NCBI GenBank assembly: GCA_964558375.1
Contig: CAZLCD010000001.1
Coordinates: 209,160 to 273,159, forward strand
DNA length: 64,000 nucleotides
Reading direction: 5' to 3'
Source of the DNA: an uncultured Candidatus Saccharibacteria bacterium
Lineage (GTDB): Bacteria > Patescibacteriota > Minisyncoccia > Phycocordibacterales > PALSA-1337
This document shows, piece after piece, positions 3,001 to 29,057 of the stretch. Position numbers and translations under genes: made by a program. The notes under the pieces were generated by a model. That model made no database searches, was not told the origin of the DNA, and worked only from the letters and a program-made list of their open reading frames with translations. Positions within the stretch are counted from its first letter, which is position 1; every line of letters starts with the position of its first letter.

Positions 3001-6000
3001 GTCAGACGACCTCATCACTTGGAGGAACCTCACTCATTCTTTCATCAGGTCAGGGTAGTTTGGCGGGTGGTCGGACAAGTGGTATTTTCGGATCAGCAAC
3101 CACCACATCATCTGGAAATGGTTCAATCGCTTGGGGGTATGCTGAGTCTGCAGGTCCAGGTACTTCCGCCAACCTAACCTCTTCCGGCACAGGTTCTATT
3201 GTTCTTGGTGCAGCCTCTAACAAGAATCTAACCTCTTCTGCTATAGGTTCATTTGCTGGTGGTTATGCAAGTGCTGGTAATATTCTTTCTTCTGCAGATG
3301 GTGCGTTTGCATTCGGAGATAACATCACAGCTTCTGCTGCACTTTCCACTGCCTTCGGTTCTGGGTTTACAAACAACACTGCAAATAGCTTTATGGTTGG
3401 TTATGGTTCAACTCCAACTCTTACAGTAGATGCTACAAATGTAGGTATCGGTACCACATCTCCATATGCAAAACTTTCTGTTGTTGGCCAAGCTGTCGCT
3501 GCATACTTCACCGCTACTACTTCCACCGCTTCTACTTTCCCTTACGCTTCTACTACAGCTATTACTTCTTCAGGTTCTGCGTATTTTGGAACTTCATCTG
3601 GTGGAGTATTGATCGGTACAACCACAGCCAACTCAACCTCAAAACTCACCCTAGCAGGAGGAAACTTCATACACACAGCTGTCGGTGACCCGACATTGAA
3701 GGGTACATACAACACACCCGGCACTTCTGGTGGGGTATATGTCTCTGGTAAATATGCTTATGTAGCAGACGGTACATCTCTTCAAATTATTGATATATCA
3801 AACCCAGCATCACCAACTTCTATAGGATCATACGCATCTTCTGGATCAATATTTTCTGTATCCGTCTCTGGTAAATATGCCTATGTTACAGTATCTGATT
3901 TACTAGGATCTTTTTTAATTATTGATGTTTCAAATCCAGCATTACCAACACTTGTTGGTTCAGCAATTACTAGTAGTGATGTATCTTATTCCTATGTTTC
4001 TGGAAAGTATGCATATGTTTCTGATAATCTTGCTGGACTAAAGATTTTTGACATTTCAGATCCTAGATCACCAAGTCTTCTTTCAACATATGCTCCAGGT
4101 ACTGAGAATACGGGTGTATATGTTTCTGGTAAATATGCATACATTGCAGATAGTTCATCTGGTATTCAAATCCTAGATATTTCAAATCCAGTCTCACCGT
4201 CTTTGATGGGAACATATAATACTAGTGGCGCAGCTCTCGGTATATATGTTTCTGGTAAATACGCATATGTTGCAGATGGTAGCTCAGGTCTACAGATTGT
4301 AAATATCTCTAACCCAGCCTCACCGGCTCTTGTTGGAACATATAATACTACTGGAACCGCCTATGATGTTTACGTCTCTGGAAGATACGCATATGTTGCT
4401 GATGATACCTCAGGCGTCCATGTTATCGATGTCCTAAACCCAGCTTCGCCATCTCTTGTAGGAACATACAATACATCAGGCAATGCTGCTGGAATATATG
4501 TCTCTGGTAAATACGCATATGTAGCAGATAGTGCCTCCGGCCTCCAAATCCTCGACATCAACGGTATCGAAACCCCATCCCTATACGCAGGTAATATCGA
4601 AACCAACGTCCTCAATGCCACAGAAAACATAATCGCAGGAGGAGACATCTATGCTCAAGGAGGATTAAATGTCGGTATCTCTGGTATCTTCTCTAGAGGA
4701 ACTATCTCAGCTTTTATAGCTTCTACAACTCAGACAAATCCTGTGGTTGCTACATTTATGGGGGGGAATGTGGGAATTGGAACTACCTCTCCATGGCGTA
4801 GACTATCTGTAAATGGTTCATCAGATCTTGGTATAAATGCTCTAGCTGGATACTTCACCGCTACTACTTCCACTGCTTCTACTTTCCCTTATGCTTCGAC
4901 CACAGCCATCACTTCTTCAGGTTCTGCTTATTTTGCTACTACTGGTGGGAATGTGGGAATTGGAACAACTTCACCTTATGCAAAACTTTCTGTTGTCGGT
5001 CCGGTAGTTGCAGAATATTTTAATGCTACAAGTACAAATGCGACTTCTACTTTCCTGGGAGGGGTCGCTATAGGTGGACCATTTAGAGGACAAGTAAGTC
5101 CATACACAAGAGTAGAATTTTCTGATCCTACTAGTGGTTATTATTCTGATTGGAGTTTTGATCTAGCTGGAGGCGGATCAGGTGCTATTAATTTTGGTTC
5201 ATCTGCTGGTACATATGCCTCTAGAAGTGTGAGAACACTTACCCCTTCTGTTATAGGTACATATCTATATAACACACTAGGATCAATGATCAGTCGTACT
5301 TGGGACGGAACAGCTTTTAAAGAATCATCAGCTATTTCATTTGAATACGATGCAGCTTTAGGTACCAATGATGTTCCTGGAGCTATATCTTTCTATACAT
5401 CCGCAGATGGTACTGCTACCCCTCGAAACCGTATGATGATTCGTAGTAGTGGAAACGTCGGTATCGGTACAACTTCTCCTTATGCAATACTCACTACCTG
5501 GGGAACTACTACAGGCAAAATCTTTGAAGCTGTAACTTCTGCTTCTACTACAGCTCTCTCTATCTCTGCTACAGGTTTTGCAACTACTACTGTATCTGGT
5601 CTAACAATTGCAGGATCTGCTACCTCTACATCCAATGTAGGCTTCAATCTTTCCGGAGGATGTTTTGCGGTCAATGGTACTTGTGTAGGAGGATCTTCTT
5701 CTGGTTCAAGTTTTGCATACCCATTTACCCCAACAACTAACTATAGTTCAACCAATCAAGCAACAACAGGTATAGCATGGTTCCAGAATGGTATAAATGC
5801 ATCTTCAACATCACATTTTGTAAATGCTTCTACTACCATGATATCTGTAAATGACTTACTCATCAGTAGTCCAGTGGCTAACAGTTTGTTTGTAGGTACA
5901 GATGCTGGTATGGGTGCAACTAGTGCTCTCAACTCACACTTCATTGGATATAATTCTGGTAATAGCGCTACCAATGCTTATGAAGCTAACTTTATCGGAA

Positions 6001-8450: not shown

Positions 8451-11400
8451 ATGATAAACCATCAAGTCAAAAGTTCATATGCCATAGCAATAATCTCCAT
8501 TTTATTTTTCTGTGCATTATTTGTAGTCAATTTTGCAAGGAAAGAGATAGCTAAAATAAACTTTGTAGCTTATATACCGGAAGCTCGAACACTTCTAGCA
8601 CAAGCAGGGGGAAGTCTGAGTGATGGACTAGTGGGGCATTGGACTTTTGATGAGGGAAGTGGAACTACAGCGGGGGATTCTAGTGGGGCGGGGAATAATG
8701 GAACTCTGGTGAATTTCCCTTCAGATGGTTCTGGATGGGTTGATGGGTATTTTGGAAAGGCGCTAAAATTTAATGGAACAAACACTTATGTAAATCTACC
8801 AAAAATTTTGGCCAATAAAACCCAATTTACAATATCAATGAGGGCAAGGTTTGATGGTGCGACAGATTTTCAGGGAGCACTTATGGGTCACTCAAATGGT
8901 GGATTCTACATTCGAAAAGCTGGTTCATGTAATAGTATCATCACTTGGGTAGTAAATAGCTTGAGTACAAATGTTGGAGCCTCTCTCAATGGATCTCCTT
9001 CAAGTGGTATTGCCTGTGATAGTTGGCAAATGCATACATTTACCATGCAAACAAATGGAACTTTTTCATATTATATAGATGGAGAATTTATAAAATCTGC
9101 AACCCATCCATCATGGGATTCTTTCAATGCTTCACATGACAATAGGATTGGTCAATATGCCGGGTCTGGTTATGTATGGAATGGTCTCATAGATGATACT
9201 AGAATATATGATCGTGCTCTATCTGCTGTAGAAATTTCCGAACTTTATAATCAAGGTACACCAAATGAAGTAGTAGAAGTGTCTACAGCGGATAGAGAAG
9301 CACCAAGTATACCAGCGAATCTAGTTGCTACTTCTGTGTCAGCAACACAAAACAATCTTTCATGGGATGCCTCTACAGATAATGTCGGTGTGACTGGATA
9401 CAAGGTATATAGAGGAACAACCGATATCGGTAATACCACAAACCCTACTTTTCAAGATACAAATGTTCCCTCAGACAACTCTAGCGTCTATACTACTTCT
9501 ATATACACCGTACTTGCATATGATGCTCAGAATAATAGATCGAACAAATCCGCATCAGCTTCCGCTACTTTTCAGTCAGCCAATACAGAGAATCCAGCTA
9601 ATGTTGCTCAAAATTTAAATGGACTAACTCTAGGAACTAATCTGAGGATAGATAATCTTGGAGCGCCCTTGAAAGGTAATACTCAAGAGCATCAAGTAAT
9701 GTATAAAACAAATGATGGTCATAGACATTTACAAATGTACTATGATACTTTTGGTGCATCACCTATCGATGTTGTAGATATTGATCTCGAAAACGCTAAA
9801 GTTGTAAAATCTTCTCTCGAAAGAAATGTAGGGAGAGTCGGTACTCGTTGTCATGTGTTCTATCCAGCAAATAACAAAATGTATATAGGTAGTAGTGATC
9901 CAGGAAGCTTTAGTGAATTTGATCCTACTACCGGAGCGACCAAGTATATAAGTGCAGTAAAGTACAAAGGTGCCTATCATTGTGAAATAGGTGATGATGG
10001 ATGGATATATATAGGGCAAATAACTGCAGGTGTAGTTAAGGGGGCAGGTCTCGAAAGATACAATCCTACGACTGGTGTATGGCAAGATCTAGGAGTCATC
10101 GACCCTGCTTTTAATGGTGCTTTGCAATATGCTTACACATTAGGTGCTGACAATCGATATGTATATATTAGTCTCGGTCAACTTCCATGGTATCTAGCTG
10201 TATATGATACTCAAGCTACTTCAAATAAGATCAAGATTTACTTTAAAGAGAATGGAGATACTAATAGTAATATTTCAAAGGGTGCAGATGGCAAATGGTA
10301 TTATACAAAATATCATTTAGGAGAGACTCCGTATAAAAGAATGTATAAATTTGAAAATGGCATTCCAGTAGAAGTAAGTAGTACGCCAGTTTTGGATCAA
10401 TGGTATCAGCAGAGCAATGTGATATCTGACAAGTCAGCATTTAAGCAAGTTTTTAATACTGAAGTAAATTTTGATAAGGCAAATTCAAATTCAGAGAACG
10501 GGGGCACGGTAGAGATAAGTTGGAAGACAGATTCTGGATCTTGGCAATCTGCTACAGTGAATGGTCTCAGTCAGGTAGCAAGAACTATCAAGCGCCTGTA
10601 TCCATGGCCAGGCAGAGAAGATAAATTTCTGGGATGGGCTTCTGAATATGGATTAGTGTTTTTGTATGATGCTTCATCAAAAGATATTCAGTCATTAGGG
10701 TATCCAACAAGAAGTCTTTATGACGCTGTTTTTGTTGGTCCGATTATCTATATATCCGGATACACAGCCATTACTATGAAGTATGATCCAAGCAAACCTT
10801 GGACACTTTCAGCTTCGACCCTAGATCCGAAGTCGACTTCTGTTAATCCATACATCTTTTATGGTCAATATGGTAAGTATCATTACTATTCAACTCTAGG
10901 TTCAGATGGAATGCTATATATTGCCACCCACCATGAGCGAGGTTCAGTGGGAGGAGAGATTGCTTGGTACAACCTGAGTTCTGGCGCATCGGCTAGTCTT
11001 CGAGAACCTTTTCTGGACTATGATGTAAGTGATCTAAAAAGCGCTCTCAATGGTACCAAGATTGTCTACTCCAGTAGTAAAGATAAATTATTTATTTTCG
11101 ATGTTGCCACAAAAAGAATTGAAAGGGAAATCACTCCTATACCTGGCAATATGGAAATTGATAAAATTTTTGAAACTGAACCCGGGATTATCTTCGGTAT
11201 ATATGACACAAAATACTTCAAAGCAAATATTCAAACAGGAGAAATTATATACATAAAAGATCTTGGTGGCAGAGCTTTCCCTGGGATTCCTGCTTATGAT
11301 CGCAGACTTGTAAAAGGTCCTGACGGGTATGCTTGGCTATTTATCGATGATAAATTATCAAGAATCAATCCAGTGGACGGTACAATTCAAAAAATAATGA

Positions 11401-12011
11401 CAGCCCCAGTATCTAGCTTTATTTTTAATGGTAATGATTTGTATTTCTATGGAGGTACCACTATAAGTAGGATCAGAAATATTTTAATTGGAGAGATTAC
11501 AAATACTCCATCCATCTCTCTACCTGTAACAAACCCAGATCTTTTAAATACAGAAGATAGCCTTCCTGTAAACGCCTCCTGCTCCACCCGTCTAAACAGA
11601 TGCTCAACTGGTTCAGTCTCCGGTAGAACCTCCAACACTACTCATAACTTATGGACTTGTAATGGACTCAATGGTGGAACTAATGCTTCTTGCTCTATAT
11701 TAAAAACAGCACAAGATCCAGTAAATCCTATAGTCCCTGTAGATCCTTTACCTCTCCAAGCTCCTTTAACCCCAACCTACACTCCAGCATACACACCAAC
11801 TCATACTCCAACTACATACGTATACAAGAAACCAGCAACCCCTGCACCCAAAGTTATATCTCCCACCCCAGACCTCCCACCCTCCCCATCCTTCGAACCT
11901 CTAGACTTTATACCCACCGACTATATTCAGATATTACTCGACTTGATCAAACAATTCTTCATTGATCTTGTGGAGAGGATTAAGAGGGGAGTAGATAGAA
12001 TAATTGGATAG
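8451..12011 (+). CDS. secreted multi-domain protein: signal/TM, LamG (Laminin_G_3-like) lectin domain, FN3 domain, beta-propeller-like core, 4-Cys module, conserved C-terminal tail domain
   Basis: N-terminal hydrophobic segment, then 'LVGHWTFDEGSGTTAGDSSG..NGTL' through 'IDDTRIYDRALSAVEISELYNQG' (LamG). 'APSIPANLVATSVSATQNNLSWDAS..GVTGYKVYRG' is FN3. 'CSTRLNRCSTGSVSGRTSNTTHNLWTCNGLNGGTNASCS' is the Cys module. The C-terminus reads '...PDLPPSPSFEPLDFIPTDYIQILLDLIKQFFIDLVERIKRGVDRIIG'. Confidence 0.85.
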   Translation: MINHQVKSSYAIAIISILFFCALFVVNFARKEIAKINFVAYIPEARTLLAQAGGSLSDGLVGHWTFDEGSGTTAGDSSGAGNNGTLVNFPSDGSGWVDGYFGKALKFNGTNTYVNLPKILANKTQFTISMRARFDGATDFQGALMGHSNGGFYIRKAGSCNSIITWVVNSLSTNVGASLNGSPSSGIACDSWQMHTFTMQTNGTFSYYIDGEFIKSATHPSWDSFNASHDNRIGQYAGSGYVWNGLIDDTRIYDRALSAVEISELYNQGTPNEVVEVSTADREAPSIPANLVATSVSATQNNLSWDASTDNVGVTGYKVYRGTTDIGNTTNPTFQDTNVPSDNSSVYTTSIYTVLAYDAQNNRSNKSASASATFQSANTENPANVAQNLNGLTLGTNLRIDNLGAPLKGNTQEHQVMYKTNDGHRHLQMYYDTFGASPIDVVDIDLENAKVVKSSLERNVGRVGTRCHVFYPANNKMYIGSSDPGSFSEFDPTTGATKYISAVKYKGAYHCEIGDDGWIYIGQITAGVVKGAGLERYNPTTGVWQDLGVIDPAFNGALQYAYTLGADNRYVYISLGQLPWYLAVYDTQATSNKIKIYFKENGDTNSNISKGADGKWYYTKYHLGETPYKRMYKFENGIPVEVSSTPVLDQWYQQSNVISDKSAFKQVFNTEVNFDKANSNSENGGTVEISWKTDSGSWQSATVNGLSQVARTIKRLYPWPGREDKFLGWASEYGLVFLYDASSKDIQSLGYPTRSLYDAVFVGPIIYISGYTAITMKYDPSKPWTLSASTLDPKSTSVNPYIFYGQYGKYHYYSTLGSDGMLYIATHHERGSVGGEIAWYNLSSGASASLREPFLDYDVSDLKSALNGTKIVYSSSKDKLFIFDVATKRIEREITPIPGNMEIDKIFETEPGIIFGIYDTKYFKANIQTGEIIYIKDLGGRAFPGIPAYDRRLVKGPDGYAWLFIDDKLSRINPVDGTIQKIMTAPVSSFIFNGNDLYFYGGTTISRIRNILIGEITNTPSISLPVTNPDLLNTEDSLPVNASCSTRLNRCSTGSVSGRTSNTTHNLWTCNGLNGGTNASCSILKTAQDPVNPIVPVDPLPLQAPLTPTYTPAYTPTHTPTTYVYKKPATPAPKVISPTPDLPPSPSFEPLDFIPTDYIQILLDLIKQFFIDLVERIKRGVDRIIG

Positions 12012-12025
12012 ATAATCTGATATAA
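11757..12025 (+). repeat. family 3' tail repeat, copy 1: Pro/Thr linker 'TPTYTPAYTPTHTPT.Y.YKKP', the 'PDLPPSPSFEPLDFIPTDYIQILLDLIKQFF..' domain, and the shared downstream 'tagataatctgatataataaa'
   Basis: DNA is about 85% identical over roughly 255 nt with 17307-17580 and 22507-22765. A diverged copy lies at 56650-56898. Copies 1 and 2 also share about 20 nt of intergenic sequence after the stop codon. Confidence 0.85.
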
Positions 12026-12039
12026 TAAAATGCAAATGT

Positions 12040-15000
12040 ATGAATAGATTTTTAAAAATAATTTTACTTGTTACAATCACTGTTTCTTCAGTATCATCTA
12101 TAAATATTTCTACCGCATCTGCTAGTCTCACTGATGGCCTCGTAGCTCACTATACTTTCGATGACAATACAAATGACTCTGCTGGAACAAACAACGGTAC
12201 TGCATCAGGTGGACCAAGTTATGTAGAGGGTAAAGTGGGGAAGGCACTGCAGTTTGACGGAACCAACGACTATATAACTCTCAGTAACACTTCAGCAGCA
12301 GACATGACAACAAATAACTTCACAGTTTCTCTGTGGCTTAAAACAAATACAACAGCAACAACTCAGTATAGGTTAATAAGCAAAAGAGGTAGTGATGGGT
12401 ATGAGATCTATCTTGGTTCCGGACAAAATGGTCTCGCTGCATACTGTGATACTACTGGAGGTGGATGTTTAAATGATAATAATCTTGGAACGGCGAGCGT
12501 GAGAGATATGAAGTGGCATCATGCTGTAGTTGTGTTTGACCGTAGTGGAAATATGACTGGATATGTTGACGGTAATGTTGGTTCAAGTCCATCAAATATC
12601 TCAGCTGCAGTAGGATCTATGACAGTTGCTCAAAATCTAATGATTGGTCAATATAGTAATGGGGGTGGTGACTATTTCAACGGCACCCTCGACGACGTCC
12701 GCGTCTATAACCGGGCTTTGTCTGCTGATGAAATAATTCAATTGTACAATCAAAGTTCTGATTCCACACCAGATATTCCTGTAGAAGAAGTGCCTGATGA
12801 TACTCCAACGGATCCAACCTCAACTCCAACCCAATATAACCTATCTGTTTTAATGAGTGGTTCTGGTAATGGATCTATATCCGGTACTGGTATTTCATGT
12901 GGTACTGATTGTAGTGAAGTTGTAAATTCAGGTACGCAAGTAACGCTTACGGCTTCTCCAGCAAATAGTTCAAGTATTTTTTCTGGGTGGAGTGGAGGTG
13001 GGTGTTCCGGTACAGGAAACTGTGTAGTCACAGTCTCTTCAGACAAAACAGTAACTGCAACATTTACAACTCAACCATTAGTAATAGATGGTAAAAATAC
13101 AGTTACCCAATCAATGTTTTATACAAAAAACGGTTTATATAATGGATATGTTCGTGACAATACAGGATTCCATCCTTTTGTAGCAGATTCATTTCCAGGA
13201 CACTATATTAAAGCTGCAGATTTAAAAGGTATTAGTCAAGCATCAATCATTCCATTGGACCAGACATATTATGGTGATAATCTTGGAAATCAAGTTAATG
13301 GTTATCCCGCTAGTGAAGCAGCAGTAAAGCTCTCAGTTGGTGGAGATTCAATTTCTCTTGATTTGGTTAATATTGAATATGGAGTCTATGTGATTAGATT
13401 GGTTGGTAGGGTAAATCAACCTACCATTCCACGTATCAGGAAACCCCTCTATGTTCATTTAAAAATAAACGATGGACCGAATGGTGAAGTGAATGATTAT
13501 CGAATGAGGGTACTGTATTCTAATAACCTAGAAGAAACTGGCAGAATATTCTTTAATGCTCTAAAACCAAATAATAATCTTCATGCGGAACTTTTTGTTG
13601 GTCCAGGCAGTCAAGAAGATTTATTAATACACAGAATAGATTTTTTTGATGCGCTAGCCGATATACAGAAAAAAGCTGTGAAGACCTCAGCGACTACATA
13701 TACAGCAGAAGAAAAATCTTCTGCTCAGACTCAGGGTAAAAAACTAATAGGTCTAGGTACACGCTCATCAGATTGCGGCTTCTTTGGGATAGATTATTGC
13801 GGAGATAATATTTTTTGGCAATGGTTCAATGGTGGCTACACAACGACTCCAGCTGTGTCTTCTGCAGAAACTCGTCGACAAAGAGATGATATTATCTGGA
13901 ATGCTTTACCACCACTAAATGCCATGACAGCTGGTATAGATGGTACATACAATGCTTATGATAAATGGCCAAATGGTATGACGACTGCAGAGGTTGTCGA
14001 ACAATATGGGAAGTGGGAACTCGATCCGATAGTTACAAATCAGCAATATATCTATCAATACTATGACAGACCTTGGAAAATAGTTAATAAAAAATTGAAC
14101 CTAGAATATACCTTAGAAGATTACAAGGCTCACAAACCCCTACCCGATCCGTACCCTTTTAAAGATGATGGAAGTGGTGTTTATTTTCCAGCATCAACCC
14201 ATGACAGTCCAGGTACATATCAATTCATTATTGCTCCACTCATACTACAGAGAATACAAGGTCAATACTCAACTTCTTTTTTTGATCCAGCTGGTGGGCC
14301 GGGACTCAATTTACCATACAGGTATTTTTTGACTAATGATGAAAAAGTTGCAAGAGATACAGCTCTTGCCTTGGTCAGATTTTCTTCACAATGGCCAGCA
14401 TTTCAGTTTGAAGCTCAAGACCTTGCTTACAATAGCGCTCTTCCAGAGCTAGTTTTTAATGGAGCTTGGCGATGGACCAATGCTCGTATTGGTAAGGTTG
14501 TAGGTATAAAAGAAGACGAAATCCAAGGTTATCTCTATGCCTATGACTATCTTTTTGATTATATTAAAAATAATCAGGAATTAGCAGACGCTGTGCACAG
14601 ATATATACCATGGGTTCAAACCCCCGATGATATTATTGAACTGATCGATACTCATTTTGTTAAATCTTTAAAAAATGATATTAGTAATAAAAGAGTAATT
14701 TTTACAAAGCCCCTATTGATCGACCTTGTTCTTCAAGATACAGCGATAGAGCAGACGGAAAGCCCAATGGATATTTCAAAAATAATTAACTTCATTCATC
14801 CTCTCACTACTTCACTTAAAAATCACTATAGCAACTCCTTTACTCAAAATGGCACTATGTTCATAGGGTCATCTTTCTATGTTATCGGAGAATCTTCGGC
14901 ATTTATTAATATGCTTGACCCAATGACGCGCTACAAGGATTCGACTGGGAAATCTATTCCGTATGATCTGACTAATCTTGATTTGTTTCCAAAGGTTAGG

Positions 15001-17562
15001 GAATATTGTAATACTTTTTCTGATTATACAGTGGCGGGAGGTTACGAACCATCTTTTGGTGATGCCGCAGATACTATCTATGAAAAACGCCAGCTAAATC
15101 CAGGATTGGTTTCCCAAATTAAAAATATGTGGAGATTCTGTAGGAATCCCAAAGCCGCTTGGTTGCTTGTTAATGTGGTCGGAAGAACTGATCAAAGTAA
15201 TACTGAATGGTCTTCTGCTCAGTCGGCAGCTAATAATGTTCGTGATCCTAGAATTTCTTCTAATTCAAGAACATTAAATGGTCTAGGTCTAGGTATATTA
15301 GAGAGTGGCGTTAGTTCAAATGACTATAGAGATAAACGAGCGGTAATGGTTAGAACCGGTAGTGGTTATGGGCATGAACACCACGATGCTCTAGACCTTA
15401 GCTGGTTCGCTCTTGGACTTCGAATGGGAACTGATTATGGACAGAGGAATGAAGGAAACTTATATACCGTACCCAATGATGAAGCTTCGAATACTCACAA
15501 TGTCCTAGAGGTTGATGGTTTAAAGCATCCATTGAGAGCGACTGATGGTTGGCCATCAGGAAGTTTCTCTGCTTCAGATGCGTGGATATCAGTTTTTGCC
15601 CCAGAAAATGGAGCTCAATATATCTCTGCTCAATCAAAATCAGCTGACCATACCAATGTTAATATTTTCAGGCGAGATACTTCACTTATAGATATAGACG
15701 ATAAGAACTCCTATGTATTCGATGTCTTTAGAGTTGGTGGTGGACAAATGCACACATGGTCTTTCCATGGAGCTGATACATCAGGAGAATCTGGCGGTCT
15801 ACAAGTTAATGTGCCTATGAACTCGACTCTAGATAGTGATGCTAGTCAGTATCTTAGAAAACATGCAGAGGGTACTAGAACACAGGGTGTGGCAACTAAT
15901 AAAATTGAAGCAACATGGAGATTAGGTAGGACTTCAAATACTGCAAATCTTAACAATGCTGATGGTGCATCACTCTCAGTTACAACTGTCGCTGCAGAGC
16001 AAAGTATGCTGGGTTCTGATTACAATGCTTCCTCCCCAAGAAAATATACCAAGACTACTTTATTCGACAGATCGGGTGATAAAGTCATGATGGGTAATCT
16101 GTATTCTGCATACTACAAAATTAATGAACCAAATCTTTTTGTACAATCAGGAACTGGTGGTAGTTATAACTCTGGAAGTAATAAGCAAGATGTATATCCT
16201 GCTATAATTGAAGCTTACGCTGGTTCATCTCTTATCTCCGCTAGTCAATCACTTTCTGTTACTCCGAATGAATCTGATGCTCTAAAAGCTGTTGCGCTTT
16301 CAGTCACTACTACAAATGGTAATAATGATATATTGTTTTCAGATGGAAGAAATACAACTCGTACGATCGGAGGGGGTACTATGACCGCCAATGCGCAATT
16401 TGGTTACTATTCATCAAATGCTGGAAATATGAGAATGATGACTATTGTTGGTGGTACAAATCTAACAAAAGGAAATTATTCTCTAAAACCATCCGTTGCA
16501 GTAAATTCCTCTACTATCCAAAGTGTTAATTATCGTGATCGTAAGATATATACATCTTCAAAATTTCCAAAAACTCTTATCAATCGCGACTTTCATATAA
16601 AAAATACTGATCACGAAACTTCATACAAAATAATCAATATTGTTGACTCTGGCTCTGGTAGTATACTTACCTTCGAAAAACCTGCAGATATCGGGGTTCT
16701 TAAGATTGATGGCCTGTCAGGTAACACCATTACATCCTCAGATAGTTGGATTTTAGACTATACACCTAACAGAAATAGGGGATTAACCGGTACAAATGAA
16801 TCTGGTTCTAAAGTTTTTAAGATTAAAAAGACGGCAAGTAATGGCGGAAGTTCAAATACAATTTCTGGAGCATCTGTTTCTCAAGCTGATTTTACTGATA
16901 TTGATGGAGATGGAATCTCTCAGGTACTTGTATATGATTTTGGCATAGGCGATACAATAGAGGTTGCATCCGCCTCAACTTTAAAAAGAGTAAATAACAA
17001 TGATATATATCAACTAACAAGTAACACACCTCTGTCTGTAACTTTACCTGGTACTGGAAGCTTGGAAATTAGTTCAAATTCTTCTAGTTGGACAAAGATT
17101 AACAGTACCTTATCTACAAATTCAGTAACAGCGAACATTACTGAATCACAACTACTATCAGGTATCAAATATGTTAGAGCTTCATCAAACCCTGGTATTA
17201 ATCTTACATTAGAAGAGTTGAAAAAATTAGAGGACCAAGCTCTTCTTAATGTACCTCTTAATCCACTTACCCCATTACCTAACCCAGATCCTTTTCCTCT
17301 CTCCCCGCTAAATCCTACTACTCCAACCTACACTCCCGCATATACACCAACCCATACTCCAACACCCTATACCTACAAGAAACCAGTAACTCAAGCACCC
17401 AAGGTTATCTCTCCAACCCCAGACCTCCCACCCTCCCCATCCTTCGAACCTCTAGACTTCATACCCACCGACTATATACAGATATTACTCGACCTTATTA
17501 AACAATTCTTCATCGATCTTATAGAAAGGATTAAGAGGGGAGTAGATAGGATAATTGGATAG
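12040..17562 (+). CDS. secreted multi-domain protein: signal peptide, LamG domain, InlB-B-repeat-like Cys domain, large alpha/beta core (possibly heparinase II/III-like polysaccharide lyase; weak call), conserved C-terminal tail domain
   Basis: 'MNRFLKIILLVTITVSSVSS' is the signal peptide and LamG ends '...LDDVRVYNRALSADEIIQLYNQS'. 'SGSGNGSISGTGISCGTDCSEVVNSGTQVTLTASPANSSSIFSGWSGGGCSGTGNCVVTVSSDKTVTATF' fits the divergent InlB B-repeat pattern. 'YGHEHHDALDLSWFALGL' recalls heparinase II/III motifs with low confidence. The C-terminal tail is identical in type to that of 8451..12011. Confidence 0.85.
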   Translation: MNRFLKIILLVTITVSSVSSINISTASASLTDGLVAHYTFDDNTNDSAGTNNGTASGGPSYVEGKVGKALQFDGTNDYITLSNTSAADMTTNNFTVSLWLKTNTTATTQYRLISKRGSDGYEIYLGSGQNGLAAYCDTTGGGCLNDNNLGTASVRDMKWHHAVVVFDRSGNMTGYVDGNVGSSPSNISAAVGSMTVAQNLMIGQYSNGGGDYFNGTLDDVRVYNRALSADEIIQLYNQSSDSTPDIPVEEVPDDTPTDPTSTPTQYNLSVLMSGSGNGSISGTGISCGTDCSEVVNSGTQVTLTASPANSSSIFSGWSGGGCSGTGNCVVTVSSDKTVTATFTTQPLVIDGKNTVTQSMFYTKNGLYNGYVRDNTGFHPFVADSFPGHYIKAADLKGISQASIIPLDQTYYGDNLGNQVNGYPASEAAVKLSVGGDSISLDLVNIEYGVYVIRLVGRVNQPTIPRIRKPLYVHLKINDGPNGEVNDYRMRVLYSNNLEETGRIFFNALKPNNNLHAELFVGPGSQEDLLIHRIDFFDALADIQKKAVKTSATTYTAEEKSSAQTQGKKLIGLGTRSSDCGFFGIDYCGDNIFWQWFNGGYTTTPAVSSAETRRQRDDIIWNALPPLNAMTAGIDGTYNAYDKWPNGMTTAEVVEQYGKWELDPIVTNQQYIYQYYDRPWKIVNKKLNLEYTLEDYKAHKPLPDPYPFKDDGSGVYFPASTHDSPGTYQFIIAPLILQRIQGQYSTSFFDPAGGPGLNLPYRYFLTNDEKVARDTALALVRFSSQWPAFQFEAQDLAYNSALPELVFNGAWRWTNARIGKVVGIKEDEIQGYLYAYDYLFDYIKNNQELADAVHRYIPWVQTPDDIIELIDTHFVKSLKNDISNKRVIFTKPLLIDLVLQDTAIEQTESPMDISKIINFIHPLTTSLKNHYSNSFTQNGTMFIGSSFYVIGESSAFINMLDPMTRYKDSTGKSIPYDLTNLDLFPKVREYCNTFSDYTVAGGYEPSFGDAADTIYEKRQLNPGLVSQIKNMWRFCRNPKAAWLLVNVVGRTDQSNTEWSSAQSAANNVRDPRISSNSRTLNGLGLGILESGVSSNDYRDKRAVMVRTGSGYGHEHHDALDLSWFALGLRMGTDYGQRNEGNLYTVPNDEASNTHNVLEVDGLKHPLRATDGWPSGSFSASDAWISVFAPENGAQYISAQSKSADHTNVNIFRRDTSLIDIDDKNSYVFDVFRVGGGQMHTWSFHGADTSGESGGLQVNVPMNSTLDSDASQYLRKHAEGTRTQGVATNKIEATWRLGRTSNTANLNNADGASLSVTTVAAEQSMLGSDYNASSPRKYTKTTLFDRSGDKVMMGNLYSAYYKINEPNLFVQSGTGGSYNSGSNKQDVYPAIIEAYAGSSLISASQSLSVTPNESDALKAVALSVTTTNGNNDILFSDGRNTTRTIGGGTMTANAQFGYYSSNAGNMRMMTIVGGTNLTKGNYSLKPSVAVNSSTIQSVNYRDRKIYTSSKFPKTLINRDFHIKNTDHETSYKIINIVDSGSGSILTFEKPADIGVLKIDGLSGNTITSSDSWILDYTPNRNRGLTGTNESGSKVFKIKKTASNGGSSNTISGASVSQADFTDIDGDGISQVLVYDFGIGDTIEVASASTLKRVNNNDIYQLTSNTPLSVTLPGTGSLEISSNSSSWTKINSTLSTNSVTANITESQLLSGIKYVRASSNPGINLTLEELKKLEDQALLNVPLNPLTPLPNPDPFPLSPLNPTTPTYTPAYTPTHTPTPYTYKKPVTQAPKVISPTPDLPPSPSFEPLDFIPTDYIQILLDLIKQFFIDLIERIKRGVDRIIG

Positions 17563-17580
17563 ATAATCTGATATAATAAA
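17307..17580 (+). repeat. family 3' tail repeat, copy 2
   Basis: See copy 1. The identity is visible directly, for example in 'cccagacctcccaccctccccatccttcgaacctctagacttcatacccaccgactatat'. Confidence 0.85.
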
Positions 17581-17584
17581 GTGA

Positions 17585-19756
17585 ATGATAAAATTATTTA
17601 AAATTACTTCTGTTTGCATTTCGATTGCTATAGTCTTCTTATTATCCCTACCCACCACGACCCATGCCCTCACCCTCACTAGTAGCTCAAATAACCTAGG
17701 TCTCAATGCTGGACTTGTAGGATGGTGGACCTTCGACGGTAAAGACGTGGTCAATGGTAGAGCTTTAGACAAGTCAGGAAATGCAAATCATGGAACTCTC
17801 ACCAACATCTCTACTTCCACCTTCTATACCACAGGCAAGATCGGGCAGGGGTTTAGGTTTGATGGCACCAACGACTATATAACTCTCAGTAACACTTCAG
17901 CAGCAGACATGACAACAAATAACTTCACAGTTTCTCTGTGGCTTAAAACAAATACAACAGCAACAACTCAGTATAGGTTAATAAGCAAAAGAGGTAGTGA
18001 TGGGTATGAGATCTATCTTGGTTCCGGACAAAATGGTCTCGCTGCATACTGTGATACTACTGGAGGTGGATGTTTAAATGATAATAATCTTGGAACGGCG
18101 AGCGTGAGAGATATGAAGTGGCATCATGCTGTAGTTGTGTTTGACCGTAGTGGAAATATGACTGGATATGTTGACGGTAATGTTGGTTCAAGTCCCTCAA
18201 GTATATCAGCTGCAGTAGGCTCTATGACGGTCGCACAAAGTCTAATGATTGGTCAGTATAGTAATGGTGGCGGTGACTATTTCAACGGCTCCCTCGACGA
18301 CGTCCGTGTCTATAATCGAGCACTCTCAGCCACTGAAATCCGCCAACTCTACAACCAAGGAGCAGCCACCAAGCAAGGTGTAGCCCAGAAGGTAACAGCA
18401 ACTTCTACCTGTAGTACAGGACTATCCTGTGGGCTCGTCGGCTACTGGTCCTTTGATGGTAAAGATGTAGTAAACGGTAGAGCTCTAGATAAGTCAGGTA
18501 ATGCAAATCATGGAACTCTTACAAACATCTCCACCTCTACTTTCTATACAACAGGCAAGATCGGGCAGGGGTTTAAGTTCGATGGGGTGAATGATACCGT
18601 AAACATAGCTACAAACATGTTTGCCAACAGGACTGAGTTTTCATTGATGGTGTGGACCAAAAAAACTAAAGGAACTACAGGTTCTGTATTTTCTTCTTCT
18701 AACGGTGGTCCATATTGGAGATTCACTTCTGCAACCACAATATTGCATTATATAGAAAAATCAGACTGTACAGGATCTTCGAGAGGTGTAGCATATCCAG
18801 ATGATGGCAAGTTTCATTATATTGGTTTTACGGTCAGTACAGCTGGACTCGTTAGATTTTATGTAGATGGAGTGGTAGTTGACTCTTATACATATCCTAG
18901 TTGGAATTATGCATGTGCAGATGCTACAGATTGGCGTAGTATCGGTTCTTACGCAGTATCCAATTATTTCAACGGCCTCCTCGACGACGTCCGCATCTAC
19001 AACCGCGCGCTCTCAGCAACCGAAGTCACCCAGCTCTACAACCAAGGTGCAGCAACCAAACAAGGTGTAGCACAGAAGGTAACAGCCACCTCCACCTGTA
19101 GTACAGGACTATCCTGTGGGCTCGTAGGCTACTGGTCTTTTGATGGTAAAGATGTAGTAAATGGAGTAGCGAGAGACAAGTCAGGAGGTAACAATCATGG
19201 TAACCTAGTGAATATCGCCACTTCTACATTCTATGTACCAGGCAAGATCGGGCAGGGGTTTAAGTTTGATGGGGTGGATGATTATGTGAGTGTAGGAAAT
19301 AATACGGTTTTGGCTCCGACAACTGCGGTAACTATTTCTGCATGGGTAAAGCCGTTAAGAAAGGTTGATTCCAGTCACTACTCGGCAATTACATCAAGAG
19401 GTTCTGTTAATTATTTATTTATGATAAGACACGGTGGTGTTGTAGTTTTTTATCTTCCAGGGGTGCAGAACTGGGTTACTAATGACGGCGCAAAAGATCT
19501 CTTTGACGGCCAATGGCACCATGCTCTTGTGACTTATGATGGTAGCTTCCAGCGATTATATATCGATACTACACTTATAAGTTCTAGTGCTATAACAGGA
19601 AATATCACATCAAACTCGAATACAACTCTTATTGGTAGAGATACTACTGGTGCATCAAATTTTAATTTCAACGGCCTCCTCGACGACGTCCGTATCTACA
19701 ACCGTGCTCTCTCCGCTACCGAAGTCCGTCAACTCTACAACCAAGGTAAAAAATAA
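17585..19756 (+). CDS. secreted protein made of three tandem LamG domains; it lacks the family C-terminal tail
   Basis: 'MIKLFKITSVCISIAIVFLLSLPTTTHA' is the signal peptide. Three LamG units each end 'LDDVR[IV]YNRALSATE[IV].QLYNQG'. Linker 'AATKQGVAQKVTATSTCSTGLSCGLVGYWSFDGKDVVNG' occurs twice. The first LamG shares about 350 nt of near-identity with 12040..17562. Confidence 0.85.
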   Translation: MIKLFKITSVCISIAIVFLLSLPTTTHALTLTSSSNNLGLNAGLVGWWTFDGKDVVNGRALDKSGNANHGTLTNISTSTFYTTGKIGQGFRFDGTNDYITLSNTSAADMTTNNFTVSLWLKTNTTATTQYRLISKRGSDGYEIYLGSGQNGLAAYCDTTGGGCLNDNNLGTASVRDMKWHHAVVVFDRSGNMTGYVDGNVGSSPSSISAAVGSMTVAQSLMIGQYSNGGGDYFNGSLDDVRVYNRALSATEIRQLYNQGAATKQGVAQKVTATSTCSTGLSCGLVGYWSFDGKDVVNGRALDKSGNANHGTLTNISTSTFYTTGKIGQGFKFDGVNDTVNIATNMFANRTEFSLMVWTKKTKGTTGSVFSSSNGGPYWRFTSATTILHYIEKSDCTGSSRGVAYPDDGKFHYIGFTVSTAGLVRFYVDGVVVDSYTYPSWNYACADATDWRSIGSYAVSNYFNGLLDDVRIYNRALSATEVTQLYNQGAATKQGVAQKVTATSTCSTGLSCGLVGYWSFDGKDVVNGVARDKSGGNNHGNLVNIATSTFYVPGKIGQGFKFDGVDDYVSVGNNTVLAPTTAVTISAWVKPLRKVDSSHYSAITSRGSVNYLFMIRHGGVVVFYLPGVQNWVTNDGAKDLFDGQWHHALVTYDGSFQRLYIDTTLISSSAITGNITSNSNTTLIGRDTTGASNFNFNGLLDDVRIYNRALSATEVRQLYNQGKK

Positions 19757-19768
19757 TCTAAATGAATT

Positions 19769-22762
19769 ATGAATAGATTTTTTAAATTAATTTTATTTCT
19801 CACTATAATTATCTCAGTATCTCTTTCTACCAACATACCTAACGTATCCGCTAGTCTCACAGATGGACTAGTATCACACTATACTTTCGATGAAGGAAGC
19901 GGAACCACTGCAGGGGATTCTGCTGGGTCGAATGCAGGGACACTTACAAATGGACCGACTTGGGCTACGGGGAAAGTGGGAAGTGGGGCACTACAGTTTG
20001 ATGGAACGGATGATTTTGTAAAGTTAACTTCTCGCATTACATCCCCAGGTACTTTTTCTATGAGTCTATGGTTCTATCCAAAAACGGTATCTTATGCTGG
20101 AGGAGTTTTGATCGGTGGTTTAAATGCAAATTCTCAGATCACTGCAGGTCCTATTGTTACAGTAAGAGACAATGGTGCAGCGGCAACTGATGTAGCTATA
20201 TTAAAACCACTTTTTGCCAATAAATGGCAACATCTAGCTGTGACCCGTGGTGCGAGTAATGCTATTTTAATTTATCTAAATGGAGAAAATGTAACCACAG
20301 GCACTCCGACTTTTTCTATCACAAAATATTGGGATTATATCGGTAGTCGCTCTGATGGTCTATATCCTTTCTCTGGTTCCCTCGACGACATCCGCATCTA
20401 CAGTCGTGTTCTAGATTCTAATGAAATAGAAGAATTAAATGATATGGGTGCAGTTGTAGCTTCTGGGGACACGGAAGCACCTTCCATACCCTCTGGTCTC
20501 ACAGCTTCTCCCACATCACAATCAAAAATCAATCTATCTTGGACTGCATCTACAGATAACACTGCCGTAACAGGATACAAGATATACAGAGGTGGTTCAG
20601 AAATAGCTACCACACCAAATACTTCCTATGAAGATACAGGACTATCTCCTAGTATTCCATACACCTACACAGTACTAGCCTATGATGCTATAGGTAATCA
20701 AAGTGAAAAATCCTCTCCTACCTCTGCAACTATACAATCAGATACTCCTGTCGCAGATACACCTCCACCGGCTGACAATACAGTATGGTACGTCTCACCT
20801 ACAGGAACATCAGCTGGAACTGGTTCCATTACTAGTCCTTGGGATCTACAGACAGCTTTTACTAATACAGGTAAGAAGATAAAACCGGGACATACTGTAT
20901 GGATGCGGGGAGGGGTTTATGGGCTCGGAGGAAATACAGTTTTTGGTCATCGATGGGATGGGTTGAGTGGAACAAGTGGTAATCAAATTACTTTTAGAAA
21001 TTATGCAAATGAGCGAGCTATTATAAATGGATCTATCGCTGGAAGTGGAAATTACCTTACTTTCTTTGGATTTGAAATAATGAATTCAAATCCTGTGCGT
21101 AAGATCAGTACTTTTGATAAGCCAGGAGGGATAAATATAGGTGGTAAGGGTAACAGAGTGATCAATCTGGTTATACATGATGTAGGACATTCACCAATTG
21201 GAGGAATATCCGAAGGAGAAATTTACGGAGTAATAATGTGGGGTAGCGGTATATACGATACAAGCAATCCATTATATCCAAATGGTCTAGCCCGAGGATC
21301 TGGTATGTACCTCCAGAATCGTAATGGAAACTCTTATGTTTCCGATTCAATTTCTTTTAAGCAATTTACGACTGGAATGAAAGCCTATGCACAAGAAGGA
21401 CATGTTAATGGATTTAAATTTGAAGGCAATGTAGTGTTCGATAACAATGATATAAACCTTGAAACTATCGCAATTACAAATCCAGCTAAGGATATTTCCT
21501 GGATAGAAAATTACACTTACACAGATCCTCTTGATATTAAAAAGCCAGCACAGCTAGGATGGGTTTCAAACGATATGATAGATGCAATAGTCAAAGATAA
21601 TTATTTTGTAAATGGAAGTAATCCTAAAGGAGCACTCTTTGTTCATAAATGGAAAGATTTAAATGTGACCGGTAATACTTTTATCTCTCAACGACAAGCT
21701 GCTAACGTTCCAGTATTGTCTTTCGATATGCCTGACACCACGACTTCACATACCTGGAACTCCAACAAATATTACGGAGGCAATTCATCTTCTCTATTTT
21801 TCCTCGACAATGTTGCTAAGACCTTCGATCAATGGAAATCCACCACCGGCTTCGACTCCAACAGCACCTACTCATCATCTCTACCTAGTACCAATGCCAT
21901 TTTCGTAAGACCAAACAAATACGAACAAGGAAGAGCACATGTCATTGTCTATAACTGGGAAAACAAAAACCAAGTAAATGTAAACATTTCAAATATAGGA
22001 CTTCAAACAGGAGACAACTTTGCTATATTCGATGTACAGAACTTCCTAGGAGAACCAGTAATGAGAGGAGTGTATAATGGTCAGTCAGTAGATCTTCCTA
22101 TGAACCTCACCACCATCACTCCTCTCATCGGTAGACAAAACATTACACATTTCAATCCAAACACTCATACAGACAAGAAATTCAATGTCTTTGTTGTCTT
22201 AAAGACCAATGGAGTCTATTCTCAACAGAACTATGTGATCCCTCCACCTCCAGCAAACCTTCCTCCACCCACAGTAGAGATACCCAATCTACCAATTGAC
22301 TTACTAGTGAATGGATCTTGTTCTACACGGTTGAATAGATGCTCAAACGGCACAGTATCTGGTAGAACCTCCAACACTACCCACAATCTCTGGACTTGTA
22401 ATGGTTTAAATGGAGGTACCAACGCTTCTTGCTCTACCTTAAAGACAGTAGAAGATCCTGTAAATCCTATAGCACCTGCAGATCCTTTACCGACTCCTCC
22501 TTCTGCACTAAACCCCCTAACCCCAACCTACACTCCAGCATACACCCCAGCACACACTCCAACACCCTATACCTACAAGAAACCAACCACTTCCACACCC
22601 AAACCAATAGCAGGAACCCCTGATCTCCCACCCTCCCCGTCCTTCGAACCTCTAGACTTCATACCCACCGACTATATACAGATATTACTCGACCTAATTA
22701 AACAATTCTTCATTAATCTTATGGAGAGGATTAAGAGAGGGGTGGAGAGGATAATTGGATAA
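19769..22762 (+). CDS. secreted multi-domain protein: signal peptide, LamG, FN3, parallel beta-helix-like core (pectate-lyase-fold candidate), 4-Cys module, conserved C-terminal tail domain
   Basis: 'MNRFFKLILFLTIIISVSLS' is the signal peptide and LamG ends 'LDDIRIYSRVLDSNEIEELNDMG'. 'APSIPSGLTASPTSQSKINLSWTAS..AVTGYKIYRG' is FN3. Repetitive 'G..N..I..' turns are consistent with a beta-helix. The Cys module is 'CSTRLNRCSNGTVSGRTSNTTHNLWTCNGLNGGTNASCS'. The tail reads '...PDLPPSPSFEPLDFIPTDYIQILLDLIKQFFINLMERIKRGVERIIG'. Confidence 0.85.
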   Translation: MNRFFKLILFLTIIISVSLSTNIPNVSASLTDGLVSHYTFDEGSGTTAGDSAGSNAGTLTNGPTWATGKVGSGALQFDGTDDFVKLTSRITSPGTFSMSLWFYPKTVSYAGGVLIGGLNANSQITAGPIVTVRDNGAAATDVAILKPLFANKWQHLAVTRGASNAILIYLNGENVTTGTPTFSITKYWDYIGSRSDGLYPFSGSLDDIRIYSRVLDSNEIEELNDMGAVVASGDTEAPSIPSGLTASPTSQSKINLSWTASTDNTAVTGYKIYRGGSEIATTPNTSYEDTGLSPSIPYTYTVLAYDAIGNQSEKSSPTSATIQSDTPVADTPPPADNTVWYVSPTGTSAGTGSITSPWDLQTAFTNTGKKIKPGHTVWMRGGVYGLGGNTVFGHRWDGLSGTSGNQITFRNYANERAIINGSIAGSGNYLTFFGFEIMNSNPVRKISTFDKPGGINIGGKGNRVINLVIHDVGHSPIGGISEGEIYGVIMWGSGIYDTSNPLYPNGLARGSGMYLQNRNGNSYVSDSISFKQFTTGMKAYAQEGHVNGFKFEGNVVFDNNDINLETIAITNPAKDISWIENYTYTDPLDIKKPAQLGWVSNDMIDAIVKDNYFVNGSNPKGALFVHKWKDLNVTGNTFISQRQAANVPVLSFDMPDTTTSHTWNSNKYYGGNSSSLFFLDNVAKTFDQWKSTTGFDSNSTYSSSLPSTNAIFVRPNKYEQGRAHVIVYNWENKNQVNVNISNIGLQTGDNFAIFDVQNFLGEPVMRGVYNGQSVDLPMNLTTITPLIGRQNITHFNPNTHTDKKFNVFVVLKTNGVYSQQNYVIPPPPANLPPPTVEIPNLPIDLLVNGSCSTRLNRCSNGTVSGRTSNTTHNLWTCNGLNGGTNASCSTLKTVEDPVNPIAPADPLPTPPSALNPLTPTYTPAYTPAHTPTPYTYKKPTTSTPKPIAGTPDLPPSPSFEPLDFIPTDYIQILLDLIKQFFINLMERIKRGVERIIG

Positions 22763-22765
22763 TCC
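22507..22765 (+). repeat. family 3' tail repeat, copy 3
   Basis: See copy 1. Confidence 0.8.
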
Positions 22766-22873
22766 GCAATTCACAACATTGACTTTCCCTCAATCTTCCT
22801 GTATCTTATTCAATGTAAGTTTTCCTAGTCGCTTACAGTTTATTTATTTAAGACGGGTTAAAAGTAAAAGAAA

Positions 22874-28847: not shown

Positions 28848-29057
28848 ATGGGATATGCTGTCAAACGACAGCAGTTTTCCAATTCCCAACCAACCTTTGT
28901 AGGTGGGGTGGGGATAAGTGATTCCGATCCAAAGATGATACAATGGTTGATGAAAAAGGGTATAGTCAAGTCCTCCGGTGGTGGCCAAGTGGTGTTGATC
29001 GTCGTACTCATTTTAAATGTTATTATTACGTATTTTATAATTAAATTTTTATTATGA
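28848..29057 (+). CDS. small hypothetical protein with a C-terminal TM helix (69 aa from the SD-preceded Met; the track ORF starts at 28815)
   Basis: 'gaggaggataagATG' is a strong SD. The C-terminus is 'VVLIVVLILNVIITYFIIKFLL'. Confidence 0.5.
   Translation: MGYAVKRQQFSNSQPTFVGGVGISDSDPKMIQWLMKKGIVKSSGGGQVVLIVVLILNVIITYFIIKFLL

Follow-up and report, generated by a model that had tools for sequence, protein, structure and literature searches.

What does a C-terminal tail of about 80 amino acids, repeated at the ends of four giant proteins of a single uncultured bacterium, do for its carriers? The question is raised by a stretch of 64,000 nucleotides (hereafter the window) from a Candidatus Saccharibacteria bacterium (assembly GCA_964558375.1, contig CAZLCD010000001.1, positions 209,160 to 273,159). 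Translation of 3' ends and alignment revealed the same tail in the open reading frames (ORFs) that end at window positions 12011, 17562, 22762 and 56898 (ORF2, ORF3, ORF5 and ORF6, respectively). The tail is a real, previously unannotated C-terminal module. Comparison of its copies and homologues suggests that it is most likely a lineage-specific, fast-evolving attachment tail on paralogous adhesins, kept uniform by recombination. This is narrower and more ordinary than the sequence-only reading of this DNA, which had proposed a novel portable sorting or anchoring domain.

From its N-terminal side, the tail consists of a linker rich in proline, threonine and tyrosine, the sequence Y[TV]YKKP, an invariant core of 21 residues (TPDLPPSPSFEPLDFIPTDYI) and a helix-forming end, which is IQILLDLIKQFFIDL[IV]ERIKRGVDRIIG in three copies and IKILLNLTKDLVLNFVQRITRGAQKVIEEIKMLSS in ORF6. 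All coordinates refer to the forward strand unless otherwise stated. Copies 1 to 3, in ORF2 (11769-12008, with YVYKKP), ORF3 (17320-17559) and ORF5 (22520-22759), are each 80 residues long and show 88 to 94% identity over that length. Copy 4, in ORF6 (56638-56895), has 86 residues and 64% identity; its linker and helix are divergent, and the divergence lies entirely outside the core. The four cores (11865-11927, 17416-17478, 22616-22678 and 56731-56793) are nearly identical in their DNA and abundant in C-ending codons. A 42-nt probe from the core has exactly four sites in the window, with zero to two mismatches (0.00 expected in shuffled sequence), and a repeat search placed the first three copies in a 271-nt direct-repeat family (11762-12032, 17313-17583 and 22513-22783). 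The earlier claim that four ORFs end in one three-part tail, the fourth of them divergent, is clearly correct; the strings it quoted are accurate and its starting point agrees with that of the first repeat (11762). The array also encodes two large proteins without the tail, ORF1 (ending at 8432) and ORF4 (ending at 19756).

The carriers are large, multidomain proteins with signal-peptide-like N-termini, recognized in the sequence by their basic n-region and hydrophobic h-region; ORF3 and ORF5 also have an ASA/SAS-type site. On this basis all four are predicted to be exported by Sec. Each has a Laminin_G_3 (LamG) domain after the signal peptide. In ORF2 (8451-12011, 1186 residues) this is followed by a propeller-like region, backed only by a weak Kelch match, and in ORF3 (12040-17562, 1840 residues) by Flg_new_2 (an InlB-B-repeat) and a long unannotated region. 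ORF5 (19769-22762, 997 residues) has fn3 and a Pel9A-like beta-helix (PF22842), and ORF6 (53014-56898, 1294 residues) has fn3 and two Flg_new_2 domains. A four-cysteine (4-Cys) module of about 47 residues (CSTxLNxC...N[TS]TH[NS][LI]W[TS]CxGxNGGxxxxC), which has no Pfam match, lies directly before the linker in ORF2 (11580-11693), ORF5 (22319-22432) and ORF6, where the one before the linker (56497-56610) is the last of three (the others at 55927-56046 and 56083-56196).

The domains upstream of the tail had been described as unrelated, and the tail consequently as portable. The carriers are instead paralogues with swapped middles, built from a signal peptide, LamG, variable domains, an optional 4-Cys module (present in three of the four) and the tail. 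Their N-terminal 250 to 350 residues align at 27 to 38% identity. Because the carriers are paralogous and their tails are homogenized at the DNA level, the argument that the tail moves between unrelated proteins is weakened. The tail does have some independence from the 4-Cys module, as ORF3 is without the module and still has the tail.

The expectation that the tail would match no known sorting domain was borne out. No Pfam or NCBIfam model fitted it at E-values up to 10 (NCBIfam, which includes curated CTERM models, was scanned with two tails and three full proteins). It was also unmatched in PHROGs and among PDB sequences, and Rfam gave nothing at the tail DNA. An MXYO-CTERM family match (E 0.028) falls on residues 234-321 of ORF5, which is the fn3 region and not the tail. 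None of the four tails contains an LPXTG-like motif, and no sortase, exosortase or rhombosortase is encoded among the approximately 45 genes of the window. The tails have no match to Dockerin_1 (PF00404) in a library that does find this domain in two homologues of the carriers (L085 and L087), which served as a positive control. A tblastn search with the tail gave a full-length but non-significant match (E 0.2 to 0.5) to a junction inside receptor-binding and tail-fibre proteins of Tsamsavirus, '...VPTGWSPAPEEVDEIITDITETL...' (L094, 3001-3219; residues ~185-257 of the receptor-binding protein of Bacillus phage Izhevsk), where a beta-domain meets a helical neck.

The only element of the tail that is confidently modelled is a single C-terminal helix. 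AlphaFold2 (AF2) monomer models, built on the four-sequence alignment, place it at residues 123-152 of the last 153 residues of ORF2 (predicted local distance difference test score, pLDDT, 70 to 82) and at residues 63-99 of the last 100 residues of ORF6 (pLDDT 71 to 86). In both, the upstream part is extended or disordered and the tail contains no strands. The helices correspond to 11916-12008 (copy 1, TDYIQILLDLIKQFFIDLVERIKRGVDRIIG), 17467-17559, 22667-22759 and, with 37 residues in copy 4, 56782-56895. Their 18-residue hydrophobic moment is 0.77 to 0.81 at a mean hydrophobicity of about 0; among 147 unrelated C-termini the moment averages 0.32 and reaches at most 0.63. There is no segment of transmembrane (TM) grade in the tails, the maximum Kyte-Doolittle value over 19 residues being 0.89 to 1.15, where ~1.6 is expected of TM segments. 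AF2 and the moment computation together describe a helix at the extreme C-terminus with a high hydrophobic moment and a hydrophobicity below that of TM segments. Of the 'hydrophobic or amphipathic segment' that had been proposed, amphipathic is therefore right and hydrophobic is not.

The helix has ten charged residues, five acidic and five basic, and is net neutral in three copies. The last 12 residues carry a net charge of +2 in the same number of copies and the fourth ends acidic or neutral (EEIKMLSS), while the motif preceding the helix has a net charge of -4. Between ORF3 and ORF6 the helices differ at 17 of 30 positions, and all but one of these differences leave a hydrophobic residue hydrophobic or a polar one polar (16 of 17; permutation p = 3.8e-4). 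The physicochemical pattern of the helix is thus under selection. In the best register, occupancy reaches 0.88 and 0.80 at the heptad a/d positions and 1.00 and 0.85 for hendecads, in a segment of only 30 to 37 residues, and the hydrophobic moment peaks at 95 to 100 degrees per residue, compared with 103 degrees for canonical heptads. The computed data would fit a straight helix lying on a surface and a helix bundle alike, and cannot separate the two.

Searches with the tail itself found little outside the window. A profile of the four tails, run with HMMER against 1.84 billion cluster representatives, found only ORF2, ORF3, ORF6 and a spurious repeat protein (P0004); ORF5 is missing from this result, as clustering at 50% can hide tail-bearing members. 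Pattern scans, which required exact words of seven to eight residues, found no relative in 185,579 species genomes, in JGI metagenome contigs or in IMG/VR. A word-indexed protein search with 64 residues of the tail found nothing, a result of little weight since it missed the window's own proteins there, and the same search with a 326-residue ORF6 query also missed its own protein, so that the positive control failed. Four contigs with Flg_new_2 homologues (among L096-L100), mostly from outside the Candidate Phyla Radiation (CPR), contain no additional tails. Each of the four tail proteins is a singleton among ~15 billion proteins, and all are on one NCBI contig of 330,369 bp. As an exact sequence, the tail appears to be confined to this genome, a distribution that the sequence-only reading had named as evidence against a sorting or anchoring domain; it is softened by two architectural analogues on other CPR contigs.

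These analogues were found through the 4-Cys module. A search of metagenomes with the module, independent of the tail, identified ten loci (L084-L093) on CPR-like contigs, in which the module precedes differing C-terminal modules. Two end in Dockerin_1 according to Pfam (L085 and L087) and one in a dockerin by near-identical sequence (L088); others end in PG_binding_1 (L091, Pfam) or in esterase-like domains (L090 and L092). The remaining type is an amphipathic tail. L084 and L086, the latter a homologue of ORF5 with identical domain order, end in a linker rich in proline, threonine and serine, a motif of the PD(L)/IP(T) type and ~25 residues of amphipathic helix that finish with R-x-G. The homology of these two tails to each other is clear (Smith-Waterman z = 7.6 relative to shuffles). 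They share with the window tails the beta-helix/4-Cys protein family and the order of linker, motif and helix, but have no YxYKKP and no G-quadruplex (G4) motif, and their sequence similarity to the window tails is borderline. A scan for this architecture in 168 ORFs of the loci analysed (stop-terminated, at least 200 residues; a moment of 0.6 or more at the C-terminus and 12% or more proline in the 64 residues before it) selected only the four window tails, L084 and L086. A high-scoring hidden Markov model (HMM) built with L084 and L086 included was discarded as circular.

Beta-helix homologues of ORF5 also carry known attachment modules at their C-termini: the C-terminal domain (CTD) of the type IX secretion system (T9SS), SLH or dockerin. 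The presence of such modules at the equivalent position in homologues is the strongest support for a role of the tail in retention or docking. The proposal that the tail targets, anchors or docks its carriers is made plausible by Dockerin_1 and PG_binding_1 at the same position, and only the portability across unrelated proteins is weakened.

At the DNA level the core behaves differently from its surroundings. Between ORF6 and the other copies, 18 to 20 of 21 core codons are identical, compared with 11 to 14 of the 30 to 33 flanking codons that encode the same residue (Fisher p 2e-4 to 9e-4). The near-identical block around the core is 62 to 74 nt long; in copy 4 it is the 74-nt block 56728-56801, with at most two mismatches to copy 2. 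As synonymous sites are shared to this extent, protein-level selection alone is insufficient, and the conservation of the core, exceeding what the protein needs, points to short-tract gene conversion or a constraint on the DNA. Identity between ORF2 and ORF3 runs 18 nt beyond the stop codon. The spacers that follow these genes (12012-12039 and 17563-17584) open with the identical 18 nt (ATAATCTGATATAATAAA), which include a TATAAT-like hexamer just 5' of the next gene; it is possible that the repeat unit carries promoter or ribosome-binding-site context for the downstream gene. In addition, ORF3 and ORF4 share a separate 502-nt block with 94% identity; ~500 nt of their LamG-coding sequence (12229-12756 and 17834-18361) are 94 to 96% identical in proteins otherwise ~53% identical. 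This is a second sign of recent gene conversion within the array.

All four cores contain a canonical G4 motif, GGGGAGGGTGGGAG[GA]TC[TA]GGGG, on the template strand (G4Hunter scores -2.04 to -2.36). The copies lie on the reverse strand at 11866-11887 (GGGGAGGGTGGGAGGTCTGGGG), 17417-17438, 22617-22638 (loop variant AGATCA) and 56732-56753 (loop variant AGATCT), and differ in the loop and not in the G-runs. The window has six canonical G4 motifs, compared with 0.18 expected from shuffles, and four of them are in the tail cores; the cores also make up four of its five G4Hunter regions with an absolute score of at least 2.0. C-ending codons, which are rare here, occupy 11 to 12 of the 21 third positions in the core, against a background of 16% (binomial p = 1.6e-4), and for the four of them that give rise to the G-runs the joint probability is 2.5e-4. 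A structured RNA was considered and rejected, Rfam being empty and the mRNA folding no more stably than shuffles (z +1.7 and +0.2).

The other two canonical G4 motifs are at 19962-19988 (forward strand) and 17651-17675 (reverse strand). G4Hunter segments with an absolute score of at least 1.5 concentrate in surface-protein genes (4754-4784, 8666-8699, 18563-18588, 19250-19279, 19961-19993 and 20897-20933), and ~30 kb of housekeeping genes contain only one (28896-28923).

Taking these data together, the explanation favoured here, with a probability of roughly 40%, is that the tail is a lineage-specific surface-retention module of Sec-exported LamG paralogues resembling adhesins or glycanases in a Paceibacteria-type CPR bacterium, and that its helix anchors them in the plane of the membrane in the manner of PBP5. 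Once the proteins are exported, a proline-rich stalk of ~60 to 75 residues, long enough to cross the wall, would hold the LamG and enzyme domains off the cell. The terminal amphipathic helix of 30 to 37 residues and the invariant acidic proline motif would bind one common surface. This would most likely be the cytoplasmic membrane on its outer side, where the helix would lie in plane, neither inserted as a TM segment nor processed by a sortase-like enzyme. The copies would be kept alike by short-tract gene conversion; as all of them would have to fit one binding surface, homogenization would be tolerated or favoured, leaving the core DNA near-identical.

The model for such an anchor is PBP5 of Escherichia coli, a Sec-exported protein whose C-terminus is an amphipathic helix of 18 residues that tethers it to the inner membrane at the outer face (PMC2909392). 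The anchors of PBP5, PBP6 and DacD resemble the window tail in belonging to Sec-exported proteins, in being amphipathic helices below TM grade at the extreme C-terminus and in having no processing enzyme. The PBP5 helix differs in following directly on a folded domain and has no sequence similarity to the window tails, whose longer, net-neutral helix comes after an acidic proline motif and a proline/threonine-rich stalk.

Several observations weigh against membrane retention. A net-neutral helix behind a motif of charge -4 is atypical for binding to an anionic membrane, and a protein-protein interface fits equally well or better. The high heptad and hendecad occupancy (0.80 to 1.0) is compatible with a coiled-coil bundle. 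ORF2 and ORF6 may already be tethered to the membrane, should the hydrophobic stretch at their N-termini serve as an uncleaved signal anchor. The invariance of the core cannot be read as selection on the protein, the DNA being homogenized. The exact tail was found nowhere beyond its own genome (1.84 billion representatives, 185,579 species genomes and JGI contigs). The tail of ORF3 is borderline in its similarity to those of L084 (z = 2.4, p 0.03) and L086 (z = 2.0, p 0.05), and that of ORF6 is not significantly similar, while an unbiased HMM of the four window tails scores L084 and L086 below shuffles. The architecture recurs in this protein family in other CPR organisms; common descent with the window tail is no more than possible and so, because the similarity is borderline, is a broad conserved function.

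The first two of these points lead to a possible, more tentative explanation, in which the tail is a module for protein docking or oligomerization, with the helices forming a bundle, or motif and helix together binding a specific partner (for instance an S-layer protein, the giant protein encoded by ORF1 or a pilus component), comparable to dockerin-cohesin pairs or to the coiled-coil neck of phage fibres. The helix has acid-base pairs at i/i+3-4 spacing, is longer than in-plane anchors require and shows the a/d and hendecad occupancies given above; the invariant motif beside it, acidic and proline-rich, resembles a recognition peptide. Fit of all copies to one partner would favour homogenization here as well. 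Three of the homologues have Dockerin_1 at the equivalent position, preceded, as in the window tails, by a linker rich in proline and threonine, and both dockerins and window tails occur on several different enzymes or adhesins that would presumably converge on one scaffold. The window tail differs in having a single helix and no duplicated Ca-binding DxNxDG loops, and neither a cohesin-like nor any other partner was identified. The moment peaks below the 103 degrees of canonical heptads, and the likeness to the '...GWSPAPEE-helix' junction of Bacillus phage receptor-binding proteins, which would suit docking, is weak and non-significant at E-values of only 0.2 to 0.5. Far less probable, and disfavoured here, is a tripartite sorting signal that a dedicated sortase-, exosortase- or rhombosortase-like enzyme would cleave and attach covalently. 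The tail shares with the LPXTG/sortase, PEP-CTERM/exosortase and GlyGly-CTERM/rhombosortase signals a strictly C-terminal position on several secreted proteins of one genome, a motif upstream of a helix, a basic-leaning end in three copies and a proline/threonine-rich region of the kind that often spans the wall upstream of such signals. It is much longer (80 residues against ~30), its ten charged helix residues leave it below TM hydrophobicity, its fourth copy does not end basic, no CTERM-type or Pfam model fits it and a candidate processing enzyme is not among the window genes. The tail is, as far as these features indicate, not a new LPXTG-like sorting system, the classical tripartite model failing on the hydrophobic segment and on length. 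The resemblance previously drawn to LPXTG, PEP-CTERM and the T9SS CTD does not hold for the last of these either. The T9SS CTD (PF18962) is likewise a C-terminal module of ~80 residues on diverse secreted cargo, and it requires the outer membrane and Por machinery of Bacteroidota. It is a beta-sandwich, whereas the tail is a linker and one helix in a CPR bacterium, with no PF18962-type Pfam match and no beta-sandwich in the AF2 models.

It is quite improbable that the tail is a functionless passenger, a 3' segment that recent duplication and gene conversion have spread through a single genome. The restriction of the exact sequence to this genome and the extension of identity into 18 nt of 3' untranslated region in ORF2 and ORF3 are what such a passenger would leave, but the ORF6 copy, with synonymous sites near saturation, has kept its frame, its predicted helix and its amphipathic pattern (p = 3.8e-4), and the independent CPR homologues L084 and L086 share the architecture. 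Conservation of the core might alternatively lie mainly in the DNA, a template-strand G4 tract promoting or anchoring recombination and the protein motif being partly a by-product. This is unlikely, although compatible with the other readings. A G4 initiates gene conversion at pilE of Neisseria, and G-runs occur at vls of Borrelia (PMC4412290). The tail cores likewise combine a canonical G4 motif with surface-protein gene copies that have probably undergone gene conversion, including the further exchange between ORF3 and ORF4; their synonymous sites are conserved far above the flanks, their bias to C-ending codons is significant and their variation is confined to the G4 loop. Against this, the four motifs were copied from one sequence and amount to one independent event, C-ending codons are frequent across the whole core and not only at the G-runs, PPSP-type peptides easily yield C-runs, and the G4 covers 22 of the 62 to 74 conserved nt. 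Gene conversion alone accounts for the synonymous identity, and no G4 is present in the tails of L084 and L086. In contrast to pilE, where a dedicated small RNA (sRNA) exposes the G-rich strand, the G-rich strand here is the template of the mRNA and the motif lies inside the 3' end of a coding sequence; silent cassettes and an sRNA promoter are not known here, and there is no sign of programmed variation at the window tails. A bolder version, that the core is primarily a nucleic-acid element driving gene conversion and the exchange of ligand-binding middles among surface-protein paralogues while its peptide doubles as an anchor neck, is decidedly unlikely; were it true, a CPR episymbiont would possess a means of diversification like that of pilE.

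CPR bacteria (Patescibacteria) are regarded as living in attachment to host cells, and large surface proteins of the LamG type abound in their genomes. To our knowledge, how these proteins are retained on the cell, often without recognizable sortase substrates, is poorly understood. If surface retention is the function of the tail, a stalk with an amphipathic helix, whose place is taken in homologues by dockerin or peptidoglycan-binding modules, would be a concrete mechanism for it and a handle for finding the surface proteome of CPR organisms. Fast evolution of the tail, such that profile searches see only the copies of their own genome, would explain why modules of this kind stay unannotated. 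The homogenized core with its G4 motif would provide a small example of adhesin genes that evolve in concert within a reduced genome. As the exact module is found in one genome only and its function is one that we infer, its importance is moderate.

The closest orthologue of ORF5, P0034 (660 residues predicted, 69% identity), has an artificial C-terminus. Its ENA contig (L001) ends in a Nextera transposase adapter (3838-3907) and has a high-GC start (1-550) unlike the rest, so is a contaminated or chimeric assembly; the true C-terminus of P0034 has been lost because the contig runs into the adapter.

ORF1 (1-8432) is open at the 5' edge of the window and is therefore longer than 2809 residues. 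It has features like those of phage tail fibres, with 14 LVIVD repeats, a beta-propeller match and, ~320 residues before its end, Peptidase_S74, the intramolecular chaperone domain of endosialidases; its C-terminus is very acidic, rich in lysine, glutamate and valine, and is not the shared tail. At 29182-30048, a type IV pilin-like ORF (N_methyl motif) is fused to Laminin_G_3, which is paralogous to the LamG domains of the tail carriers (27 to 29% identity).

The window belongs to the chromosome of a CPR bacterium, and its remaining genes are housekeeping genes, encoding TGT, class II aldolase, L25, RF, S2, EF-Ts, PheS, GyrB, ThrRS and DnaE, together with RNase HII, NusB, RNase III, a short SMC, RNase R, S16, TrmD and the start of rpoB. 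In the best tblastn segment, GyrB reaches 92% identity to metagenome-assembled genomes labelled Candidatus Taylorbacteria, Paceibacteria or Parcubacteria, or Saccharibacteria where the submission was automated. Among the housekeeping genes, between dnaE and rnhB, is a gene for a BRO-N domain protein (47408-48232), a domain common in phages and mobile elements. The SMC_N-family protein (50758-52974) has only 738 residues, compared with ~1,180 in canonical bacterial SMC; its coiled coil may be shortened, or it may be another kind of SMC-like ATPase.

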